Origin: Promethearchaeum syntrophicum
GTDB lineage: Archaea > Asgardarchaeota > Lokiarchaeia > Sigyniarchaeales > Promethearchaeaceae
DNA: 32,000 nt
Assembly (NCBI RefSeq): GCF_008000775.2
Contig: NZ_CP042905.2
Location: forward strand, 2,280,001 to 2,312,000
Reading direction: 5' to 3'
Each line of letters begins with the position of its first letter. Position 1 is the first letter of the stretch. A program made the translations under genes and the position numbers. Below the pieces are notes generated by a model. That model was not told the origin of the DNA and did not search any database. It was given only the letters and a program-made list of their open reading frames with translations. This document shows, piece by piece, positions 29,272 through 30,390 of this stretch.

Positions 29272-30390
29272 TTAGATCATCTCATTTGGATGATTTTTCT
29301 CAATCCATTCAAAAATATCTGCTTGGACTATCATTTGTAAACCTGCATTTTTTTTCGATTGCGATTTACTCTTTCCAAATCCAATCTCAAAAAATAAATT
29401 TCCATTAATTGAGAGATTTAGCAATGTTAATTCTCCTTCATCTAAAGAAGCAGACCAAGATGCTCCACTAACATCACTTAAACGAGCACTAAGTAATAAT
29501 AGTGTTCCAAAAGGATTTTTACCGCTTTTTCTCATAAACCAATCAGAAAGTTTTTCTCCGGTCTTTGTAGAAAGATTTATTTGAGAATTAGAATTTTTTT
29601 CATGATTTGGTTGTGTAAATACAATCTCCTTTTCCTTTAAGGAAATTTTTACATTAGTTTTTATATTTTTAGGAATTGCATAATTATTTACTTCAGTAAA
29701 TGTGTTTTCTTGACTAAGATCATTAGAAATTCCATGAATTTCATTATACATTCTCCTTGCGGTTTCCCGTCTACAATCTTTTTTATTATTATGTAATCCA
29801 CTTGATACAGAATATTTTCGGTTATCTATCTCAAGTTCATATTTTGCTTCATAAATAGGTAAATGTTCTTCTCCATCAACACGTTCTGGTTTTATATCAG
29901 GCATACTTTCTTTTGTTTTACCTTGATAATATTCATTCAATTTTCCAATCCAATTTACATCAAGGAAATTCCTTTCTGATGCAATTTCATAAAGATGTAT
30001 AATTTTTTTTGTAGTATAATCTTCTCCATTTATTTTTCTGGATACTTCAATTAAAGATTCTACAGTTTCTTTTATATCCTTATTAGTAATATCTTGGTTG
30101 TTATCTATGGGGTGTAAATAACTTGGAATTTCAAGATATTTGCCGATTTCAACCAAAGTTCGCTCATTATGAAATTCTTGCTTTTTTTGCGTAATTATTC
30201 CAGAATCAGTTATTCCGATTTCATTAAAATTGGCAATTAATGATGTATCTAAGAATTTATCACCAATTAGAGCTAAACCTTTAAATTCGGGACCACCCCC
30301 ACACGAAGGAGGTCTTATTGCTAATTGAAATAAATCGCTATTTCTATCTAAATTGAAAAATTTTTCTGCTAACATTTGATTTATTACCAC
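29272..30390 (-). CDS. RNase III-family protein (Mini-III-like signature) with one clear and one degenerate dsRBD-like module
   Basis: 372-aa ORF. LFQLAIRPPS, GLALIGDKFLD, HNERTLVEIGKYLEIPSYL and IKETVESLIEV are colinear with E. coli RNase III LLQQALTHRS, LEFLGDSIL, RGNTLAELAREFELGECL and LADTVEALIGG. dsRBD 1: KLNEYYQGK...DGEEHLPIYEAKYEL...SGLHNNKKDCRRETARRMYNEI. dsRBD-like 2: NPFGTLLLL...LFFEIGFGKSKSQSKKNAGLQM. Confidence 0.7.
   Translation of the reverse strand: MVINQMLAEKFFNLDRNSDLFQLAIRPPSCGGGPEFKGLALIGDKFLDTSLIANFNEIGITDSGIITQKKQEFHNERTLVEIGKYLEIPSYLHPIDNNQDITNKDIKETVESLIEVSRKINGEDYTTKKIIHLYEIASERNFLDVNWIGKLNEYYQGKTKESMPDIKPERVDGEEHLPIYEAKYELEIDNRKYSVSSGLHNNKKDCRRETARRMYNEIHGISNDLSQENTFTEVNNYAIPKNIKTNVKISLKEKEIVFTQPNHEKNSNSQINLSTKTGEKLSDWFMRKSGKNPFGTLLLLSARLSDVSGASWSASLDEGELTLLNLSINGNLFFEIGFGKSKSQSKKNAGLQMIVQADIFEWIEKNHPNEMI

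Follow-up and report, generated by a model that had tools for sequence, protein, structure and literature searches.

The gene DSAG12_02637 of the Asgard archaeon Promethearchaeum syntrophicum MK-D1 probably encodes an active homodimeric endonuclease for double-stranded RNA (dsRNA), which belongs to an Asgard-specific lineage of ribonuclease III (RNase III) and has a putative metal site composed of D44, E108, and E111. The gene is situated at 29272..30375 on the minus strand of a 32,000-nucleotide stretch of contig NZ_CP042905.2 (positions 2,280,001 to 2,312,000 of assembly GCF_008000775.2), which is termed the window in the following. An earlier examination of the DNA letters, termed here the sequence-only reading, described the product as an RNase III-like protein with a Mini-III-type signature and two dsRNA-binding domains (dsRBDs) in an apparently archaeal region; the archaeal assignment of the host is correct.

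In the list of open reading frames (ORFs) of the window, the gene appears as a minus-strand ORF that encodes 372 amino acids from a GTG start (29272-30390), and the protein is 100% identical to the hypothetical protein DSAG12_02637, whose gene lies on a contig of 4.32 Mb. The NCBI protein (367 amino acids) and all orthologues begin with MLAEKFF, which corresponds to the ATG at 30375; this ATG is therefore taken as the real start, almost certainly giving a protein of 367 amino acids. Residue numbers refer to the 372-residue frame from GTG 30390, and coincidentally equal the numbering of Aquifex aeolicus RNase III at the key residues. Comparison with an orthologue of 80% identity from Promethearchaeum sp. 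gave a ratio of nonsynonymous to synonymous substitution rates (dN/dS) of 0.28 for the whole gene. Purifying selection acts on the RNase III domain (dN/dS 0.16) and on the second dsRBD (0.19), while a value of 0.48 was obtained for the first.

RNase III fold and catalytic residues

The catalytic domain comprises residues ~10-140 (29971..30363, minus strand). A phmmer search of the PDB with the single window protein returned no match, and the fold was recognized with a family profile, A2, built from 30 full-length relatives. This profile matched bacterial RNase III over positions 1-218, with the RNase III domain and the dsRBD colinear, the structures being those from Campylobacter jejuni (3n3w, E = 4.9e-24), Aquifex (1yyk, E = 3.6e-18), Thermotoga (1o0w), and E. 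coli (7r97); lower scores were obtained for Drosha and Dicer. The AlphaFold2 (AF2) model computed from the alignment of the 30 relatives has a mean predicted local distance difference test (pLDDT) score of 89.6, and its disorder is restricted to residues 224-240. The best Foldseek matches of the model are dsRNA-bound RNase III of Aquifex (E = 4.8e-9, target template modelling score 0.67) and E. coli. The all-helical RNase III catalytic fold, which the sequence-only reading had proposed for the N-terminal region, is thus confirmed by the profile and by the predicted structure.

By these comparisons of sequence, the protein is a divergent derivative of bacterial-type class-1 Rnc, which consists of one RNase III domain and a dsRBD, and not a Mini-III enzyme. 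It has in common with class-1 Rnc of A. aeolicus, E. coli, and C. jejuni a colinear stretch of ~218 residues, the best fold matches, D44 together with the acidic pair at 108/111, and the motifs of the first dsRBD. This is in contrast to the replacement of E40 by Ala, a P-x-S-C-G-G motif and H74 of its own, an extra spacer, an additional helix termed alpha0, a second dsRBD, and the archaeal host, none of which belongs to class-1 Rnc. The distance is also apparent from the NCBIfam model TIGR02191, which spans the relatives from end to end but scores them at 54-74 bits, against an equivalog cut-off of 166 bits.

HMMER, when aligning the family with RNase III of Aquifex, pairs K37 with E37, A40 with E40, D44 with D44, S63 with E64, E108 with D107, and E111 with E110. 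The canonical ERLEFLGD signature is not matched; the corresponding motif reads K-G-L-A-L-I-G-D, with Ala in place of Aquifex E40, and lies in a variant signature helix of residues 36-48, FKGLALIGDKFLD (30247..30285, minus strand), in which K37 and A40 stand for E37 and E40 and D44 is kept. The sequence-only reading had pointed to this signature, GLALIGDKFLD, and to the loss of its first two glutamates, and the alignment bears out both. It had likewise noted that the second acidic cluster survives as KETVESL; the cluster occupies residues 105-113, DIKETVESL (30052..30078, minus strand), in which E108 and E111 align with Aquifex D107 and E110. Three of the four metal-binding carboxylates of Aquifex (E40, D44, D107, E110) are consequently kept, namely D44, E108 (Glu for Asp), and E111. 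A further motif, P-x-S-C-G-G, represented by residues 27-31 (30297..30311, minus strand), is family-specific and takes the place of canonical THxSY. Its C30, together with H74 (codon at 30169-30171), stands where Tyr/Phe and Val occur in canonical enzymes.

Conservation was counted over 123 relatives of at least 200 amino acids. A40 and D44 are present in all 123, E111 in 121, E108 in 120, and an Asp or Glu at position 105 also in 120; the family-specific H74 and C30 are found in 114 and 111 sequences, respectively. Relative to Aquifex, the substitutions of the family as a whole are E40 to Ala, E37 to Lys or Glu, E64 to Ser or Thr, and D107 to Glu. Since A40, D44, E108, and E111 are fixed or nearly so, the altered pattern is best described, from the alignment, as a fixed alternative active site rather than as decay. 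Catalysis is likely kept, because D44, E108, and E111 are held at an average column identity of ~39% (30-member alignment), and pseudo-enzymes do not hold such positions. We also note that C30 and H74 covary over the 123 sequences (Fisher p = 4e-4, kinship not corrected for), which may mean that the two residues are coupled, in space or in function, close to the changed active site.

The Mini-III enzymes provide a precedent for the missing glutamate. The Mini-III structures 4oun and 6tnn read NGLALAYIGDAIFE and STAFEALLG, and the Mini-III signature GLALAYIGDAIFE, as quoted in the sequence-only reading, is correct. With hhalign, L39-A40-L41-I42-G43-D44 falls opposite L18-A19-Y20-I21-G22-D23 of Mini-III, and E111 opposite E106; D44 and E111 hence correspond to the residues mutated in the Mini-III crystals, D23N in 6tnn and E106Q in 4oun. 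Mini-III (MrnC of Bacillus subtilis) accordingly resembles the Asgard protein in having Ala at the E40 position within L-A-x-x-G-D, and the Asp and Glu equivalents of D44 and E110. Mini-III has been described as catalytically active (PMC3867540), and because it is active with the same Ala, the replacement of E40 is by analogy compatible with activity in the Asgard family.

The likeness does not extend to membership. Mini-III is ~140 amino acids long and consists of the catalytic domain alone, with no dsRBD; at the D107 position it carries Thr where the Asgard family has E108, whereas DSAG12_02637 has 367 amino acids and two dsRBD-type modules. The family profile matches Mini-III weakly (hhalign probability 48%, E = 1.8e-4) in comparison with E values of 1e-18 to 1e-24 for Rnc, and no Mini-III family was among the matches of the Pfam and NCBIfam scans. 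Assignment to Mini-III was rejected, as the common feature is the Ala at the E40 position only. The label Mini-III-type given by the sequence-only reading was therefore abandoned in favour of the end-to-end alignment with full-length Rnc.

The two dsRBD-type modules

The first dsRBD, dsRBD1, comprises residues 147-217 (29740..29952, minus strand) and follows directly after the catalytic domain as in class-1 Rnc. It is matched by Pfam dsrm at 25.8 bits (cut-off 23), and the family profile also matches dsRBDs; hhalign pairs it with the second dsRBD of XlrbpA at a probability of 89%. The canonical elements are all present, with E153 and Q156 in helix 1, the His of loop 2 in GEEHLP, and NKKDCRRETA in helix alpha2. 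Unlike in class-1 Rnc, another dsRBD-type module then follows.

The modules are separated by an inter-domain spacer of residues 218-275 (29566..29739, minus strand), which is disordered at 224-240 and carries a conserved segment, S-L-x-E-x-E-I-x-F, with S250 and F258. This segment is modelled at higher confidence in the full-length AF2 model than in a model of the C-terminal part only. The linker of ~70 amino acids in the sequence-only reading needs to be redrawn as a spacer of ~58 amino acids, conserved in part (S250, F258), plus an extra helix of 16 amino acids.

The C-terminal region (29293..29565, minus strand) consists of the basic helix alpha0 (residues 276-291, with W284, R287, K288, and K291), a degenerate dsRBD2 (292-357), and a short terminal helix (359-366). 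A domain-only AF2 model of residues 245-372 (pLDDT 91) places alpha0 at 281-291, alpha1 at 293-303, three strands at 307-315, 320-328, and 331-339, and alpha2 at 342-356, followed by the short terminal helix. Pfam gave no match to the C-terminus of the window protein alone. In Foldseek, the best 17 matches of the model are all dsRBDs (best E = 3e-4) and include Staufen1 dsRBD3-4, DCL4, Loquacious, DHX9, TRBP dsRBD3, and STAU1 SSM-RBD5. The similarity to dsRBDs detected by hhalign with the C-terminal alignment columns (probability 92%) is confined to beta2-beta3-alpha2. Here the SKxxAKK motif of alpha2 (S341-K342 and K346-K347) aligns with SKQVAKR of the second dsRBD of XlrbpA, so that RNA-contact region 3 is kept. 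Judged from the model, the second module adopts the fold of a dsRBD, to which a helix has been added at the N-terminal side, and the description of a good dsRBD followed by a degenerate one in the sequence-only reading is fair. The mean frequency of the most common residue in the long-form family is highest in the alpha0-dsRBD2 block (0.59), followed by the RNase III domain (0.52) and dsRBD1 (0.44); the block has a net charge of +2.5.

A single RNase III domain followed by two dsRBDs is also the arrangement of plant RTL2 and budding-yeast Dcr1. The arrangement is shared by Mucor R3B2, which likewise has an atypical signature (PMC8136814), and the best viral fold matches of the Asgard protein are giant-virus RNase IIIs of 340-390 amino acids. 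The comparison of profiles and domains nevertheless gave no evidence of specific common descent with these eukaryotic and viral proteins: the profile favours bacterial Rnc over Drosha and Dicer, and the Asgard dsRBD2 has its own alpha0 and is devoid of RNA-contact regions 1 and 2. The statement of the sequence-only reading that two dsRBDs are mainly a eukaryotic arrangement needs softening, since comparable proteins are found among giant-virus RNase IIIs and among metagenomic proteins with a canonical signature. Three of the latter, namely the pair P0079 and P0095 (309 amino acids; L029:468-1397) and P0064 (380 amino acids; L030:1145-2287), combine an ERLEFLGD-type signature with a second dsRBD. 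The second module of P0064 is of the same alpha0-dsRBD2 type as in DSAG12_02637, and P0064 has Gly at the D107 position.

Family range, gene neighbourhoods, and proposed role

An exhaustive phmmer search of 1.84 billion representative proteins yielded 93 matches, 28 of them below 1e-30. A profile of the short form of the family (see below) retrieved ~95 clusters before a gap in score from 116 to 90 bits, after which ordinary bacterial Rnc, mostly cyanobacterial, follow. The named members are from Hodarchaeales, Heimdallarchaeota, Promethearchaeota, the 'Asgard group', and Loki's Castle sediment, and the sole named non-Asgard member is from one metagenome-assembled genome (MAG) labelled Methanoperedens. 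Scans of genomes and metagenomes, in which narrow peptide patterns were used so that the counts are no census, found relatives on Asgard-labelled or unlabelled contigs only, with genes for small GTPases and L28e, which are typical of Asgard archaea, nearby. No relatives were found in the IMG/VR viral contigs scanned, and a viral origin was rejected. The subfamily is thus essentially confined to Asgard archaea; its members are named 'ribonuclease III family protein' or 'putative dsRNA-binding protein' at NCBI.

The family occurs in two forms with the same A40 catalytic variant. The long form has 358-398 amino acids and two dsRBD-type modules (n = 67), and the short form has ~205-245 amino acids and one dsRBD (n = 51, some of them fragments). 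In a rough neighbour-joining tree, the A40 family is one clade apart from the canonical sequences, and the short forms of Heimdall- and Hodarchaeia constitute one large subclade nested among the long forms. Both forms are encoded in one Hodarchaeota MAG, YT1_021 (short at locus L004, long at L007; loci are given by our own labels).

The preferred reading, that of an active dsRNA endonuclease, can be put in mechanistic terms as follows. A homodimer would bind A-form dsRNA via dsRBD1 and would cut both strands at a metal site of D44, E108, and E111, the fourth carboxylate, E40, being permanently Ala as in Mini-III. The alpha0-dsRBD2 block would lengthen the dsRNA footprint and thereby select longer duplexes or set the spacing of the cuts; alternatively, it might recruit a partner protein, as type-B dsRBDs do. 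The gene would stand alone, and its product would most likely cleave long duplexes of RNA, for example sense/antisense pairs or transposon and viral transcripts, probably with an overlap with genome defence in Lokiarchaeia.

A role in rRNA maturation is unlikely, since no locus examined lies in an rRNA operon and archaeal pre-rRNA is processed by the bulge-helix-bulge endonuclease (PMC3867540). No locus was in a ribosome-biogenesis operon either, in agreement with the sequence-only reading, which had placed the gene outside ribosome-biogenesis loci; the synteny with such loci that this reading had named as its own refutation was thus not observed. The confinement to Asgard archaea and the stable synteny of the short forms point, by comparative evidence, to a long-standing function in the turnover of RNA duplexes. 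This synteny is seen in Heimdall- and Hodarchaeia as a conserved block of a PAS sensor, a HAD hydrolase abutting the start of rnc, rnc itself, a membrane protein of 70 amino acids, and a P-type ATPase (L002:6532-13180, L003:6532-12970, L004:1-4689). The long-form locus L027 also has a HAD hydrolase nearby.

The strongest rival, possible though in our estimation doubtful, is that the gene is a dedicated component of defence or conflict, with the long form as a sensor or nuclease acting on the dsRNA of viruses or transposons, perhaps together with Mokosh-like modules or under CARF/cyclic-oligonucleotide control. The ORFs of 26 loci were compared all-against-all and annotated with Pfam and PADLOC, and neighbours of defence type are present at ~6 of 13 independent long-form loci, a small tally that was scored by eye and is given as a raw count. 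In the window, the gene has a type IV restriction enzyme (mREase_IV, E = 2e-211) on one side and a STAND-like NTPase on the other. The locus of the 80%-identical orthologue (L001) has a DUF1156 methylase, DUF499, and a helicase upstream. A Mokosh-like module, composed of a superfamily 1 (SF1) helicase, a protein of ~400 amino acids of unknown function, and a PLD nuclease, is found at two associations that sit in different subclades of the neighbour-joining tree, which argues for independent linkage. In the first (L006, 4148-8700), the MkoA-like SF1 helicase (E = 3e-28), the unknown gene, and the PLD nuclease are upstream on the same strand, with Smr and AAA_15+DUF4435 genes downstream. In the second (L017:2933-9940, L025:881-7911), an MkoA-like helicase (E = 4e-86 in L017) and PLD occur with a Csa3-like CARF-wHTH gene, which is located directly upstream on the same strand in L017 (36 nucleotides), L025, and also L016. 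At L005, a weak cyclase-like ORF (9281-9934, 217 amino acids; SMODS/oligonucleotide cyclase, PADLOC E ~7e-6 over the N-terminal part only) lies 66 nucleotides upstream, and L026 has a Zc3h12a-type RNase, an AAA ATPase, a radical SAM protein, and a NERD-UvrD helicase upstream.

Several results speak against such a dedicated role. The window protein matches zero PADLOC families at E <= 10, and no flanking gene is conserved across the family. Defence genes were not seen at ~7 of the 13 long-form loci. None is present among the Pfam/PADLOC-annotated genes of L007, L008/9, L010/11, L027, and L028, the single annotated neighbour at L014 is a glycosyltransferase, the single neighbour scanned at L019 has no PADLOC match, and L012 is essentially unannotated. 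The short form, which shares the catalytic variant, lies in the conserved non-defence block described above; the family is restricted to one lineage, whereas defence genes usually spread horizontally, and no relatives were found in the viral contigs scanned. The sequence-only reading had suggested dsRNA sensing or cleavage in conflict or defence. Of this, the adjoining restriction enzyme and the defence-type neighbours at nearly half of the long-form loci stand, but the link is one of co-location only.

Two observations at these loci may be added. The RNase III-like gene of L025 (7951-8268) is a remnant of 106 amino acids with 50% identity over residues 11-88, and may be a decayed copy, while its CARF and Mokosh-like neighbours are intact. 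At L005, genes for HEPN_Swt1-like and Zc3h12a-like proteins are situated further upstream.

The second rival, which we regard as unlikely, holds that the protein is a catalytically dead dsRNA-binding scaffold, sensor, or sequestering protein, like mitochondrial ribosomal mL44. It draws on the broken PROSITE-type signature, with Ala for Glu before F-L-G-D, on the loss of the E37 and E64 equivalents, on mL44 chains among the Foldseek matches, and on the label 'putative dsRNA-binding protein' of the relatives. Some of these points belong to a set of results that weigh against our preferred reading in general. The auxiliary E37 and E64 are lost besides the metal ligand E40, and in mutagenesis of E. 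coli RNase III, enzymes without the residue equivalent to E40 are reported to be less active when Mg2+ is low. Pfam Ribonuclease_3 matches the single window protein at E = 0.018, under its cut-off, and the NCBIfam scan of this protein gave no match, TIGR02191 included. The second module has a Leu run in place of the helix-1 Glu, lacks the His of the loop-2 GPxH motif, and has an acidic beta1-beta2 loop, DEGE; it may not bind RNA at all. Finally, the neighbourhoods span defence islands to plain metabolic genes and do not pin down the role.

Against the dead binder, D44, E108, and E111 hardly vary, if at all, across ~120 divergent sequences, and Mini-III is active with the same Ala. By comparison, the atypical RNase IIIs of R3B2 type are poorly conserved at their catalytic positions (PMC8136814).

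A bolder picture, which we rate as rather improbable, would unite several of these threads. In it, the long form would be the dsRNA-handling arm of an Argonaute-independent, RNA-targeting pathway of immunity or silencing that includes Mokosh-like modules and is controlled in some lineages by CARF/cyclic oligonucleotides, with dsRBD2 docking a partner or measuring the duplex. The SF1 helicase and PLD nuclease of Mokosh have been described as having domains in common with the eukaryotic pathway of PIWI-interacting RNA (piRNA) (PMC11291487). If the picture is true, activities like those of Dicer and of piRNA biogenesis would stand next to each other in the archaea most closely related to eukaryotes.

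It is quite improbable that the protein generates guides for an Asgard Argonaute in the manner of Dicer. The one RNase III domain and two dsRBDs do recall budding-yeast Dcr1 and plant RTL, and a helicase gene is nearby in the window; this helicase is, however, part of a PLD-SF2-DUF3427 DNA restriction enzyme and not of Dicer type. Clusters of rnc, asAgo, and a helicase have been published for Asgard archaea (10.1101/2023.12.14.571608), but an Argonaute link was discarded here, as no PIWI, PAZ, or Argonaute family was found among the Pfam-annotated neighbours of the window gene and of the annotated related loci. According to that report, no Ago-encoding Asgard archaeon has been cultivated, implying that MK-D1 is without Ago. 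The least probable alternative by our estimate is a nuclease specific for single-stranded RNA (ssRNA), which binds a duplex and cuts adjacent single strands like Mucor R3B2, an atypical RNase III domain with two dsRBDs that cuts ssRNA only (PMC8136814), because the catalytic positions are poorly conserved in R3B2 relatives and fixed in the Asgard family, and the best structural matches of the latter are dsRNA-bound bacterial enzymes.

Asgard rnc genes as such are already known from a report of 2023. Bastiaanssen et al. described Asgard rnc genes next to those of asAgo and a DExD/H helicase, with products that combine an RNase III domain and a single dsRBD, and proposed a role as a proto-Dicer (10.1101/2023.12.14.571608). 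The present family is similar in that it combines RNase III and dsRBD in Asgard genomes, and the short forms of Heimdall- and Hodarchaeia, here of 227-242 amino acids, fit the published description; it is unlike it in that the window protein has two dsRBD-type modules and lacks an annotated Argonaute neighbour. The variant of the catalytic motif is not mentioned in the text consulted. RNase III is not mentioned by Leão et al., whose catalogue of systems in Asgard genomes includes Mokosh (PMC11291487), and RNase III in Archaea has been considered sporadic and 'only accidental', with archaeal handling of dsRNA as an open question (PMC3867540). In the literature searched, no description was found of the A40/E108/H74/C30 signature that runs through the family, of a conserved second module of dsRBD type, of the division into a long and a short form, or of the recurrent Mokosh-like and CARF neighbours, and no paper was found that names DSAG12_02637 or pairs Prometheoarchaeum with RNase III.

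The family is significant as a coherent lineage of RNase III that selection has maintained in Loki-, Heimdall-, and Hodarchaeia, and it bears on how archaea handle dsRNA. The fixed replacements of E40 by Ala and D107 by Glu are a natural experiment on the minimum number of carboxylates required at an RNase III site, and for the second dsRBD-type domain, where conservation is highest, no counterpart has been described in prokaryotic Rnc. As one member is encoded by the cultured strain MK-D1, biochemistry and analysis of RNA in the organism are possible; a culture of a Lokiarchaeon together with a virus has recently been reported in a preprint (bioRxiv 10.64898/2026.02.13.705702). Arguments on the origin of RNA silencing draw on Asgard rnc, as in the 2023 report (10.1101/2023.12.14.571608), so that the activity of these proteins, their targets, and their partners, be it Argonaute, Mokosh-like modules, or none, matter.

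Other features of the window

The genes around DSAG12_02637 were identified as context. The restriction enzyme, a protein of 1057 amino acids with PLD, superfamily 2 (SF2) helicase, and DUF3427 domains (24692..27865, minus strand), matches the type IV methyl-directed family mREase_IV of PADLOC over its full length; its gene is on the same strand as the RNase III-like gene and 1.4 kb downstream. Between the two is an ORF of 179-190 amino acids (28564..29136, minus strand) without a Pfam or PADLOC match, possibly an orphan gene judging from its sequence, which is separated from the RNase III-like gene by 135 nucleotides and from the PLD-helicase gene by ~700 nucleotides. On the other side, a P-loop NTPase of NPHP3_N/STAND-like type with the Walker A motif GHMGLGKT (30626..32000, plus strand) is transcribed divergently and cut by the window end; it has no PADLOC match, and its long N-terminal region has no Pfam match. 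Pfam further identified an SNase nuclease among the neighbours. The nuclease, helicase, and STAND genes that the sequence-only reading had listed were thereby recovered, in a region that is variable: in tblastn, the 190-residue ORF, the PLD-helicase, the STAND-like ORF, the SNase, and ORF660 were all unmatched in the related loci searched, including that of the 80%-identical orthologue. An operon with the 190-residue ORF or the PLD-helicase was rejected, as neither has a homologue at those loci.

The window is AT-rich (27-35% GC). Scans for tRNA and Rfam families gave no matches in it, and the repeats around the RNase III-like gene are weak AT-rich matches only. The rest of the window looks accessory, with abundant genes for surface and signalling proteins. 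These include a hybrid histidine kinase with a receiver domain (4668-7019, plus strand), a papain-family protease of 1019 amino acids with CARDB (8325-11384, minus strand), and a NosD/beta-helix protein (17855-19759, minus strand). A Fic/DOC protein (16858-17793, plus strand) matches the PADLOC candidate-defence families PDC-S04 (E = 6.5e-35) and SoFic. A DEDDh exonuclease of RNase_T type fused to leucine-rich repeats (14153-15967, minus strand; PADLOC DEDDh, E = 1.6e-15), which is unusual in an archaeon, adjoins the gene of another leucine-rich repeat protein of 755 amino acids (11810-14077, minus strand).

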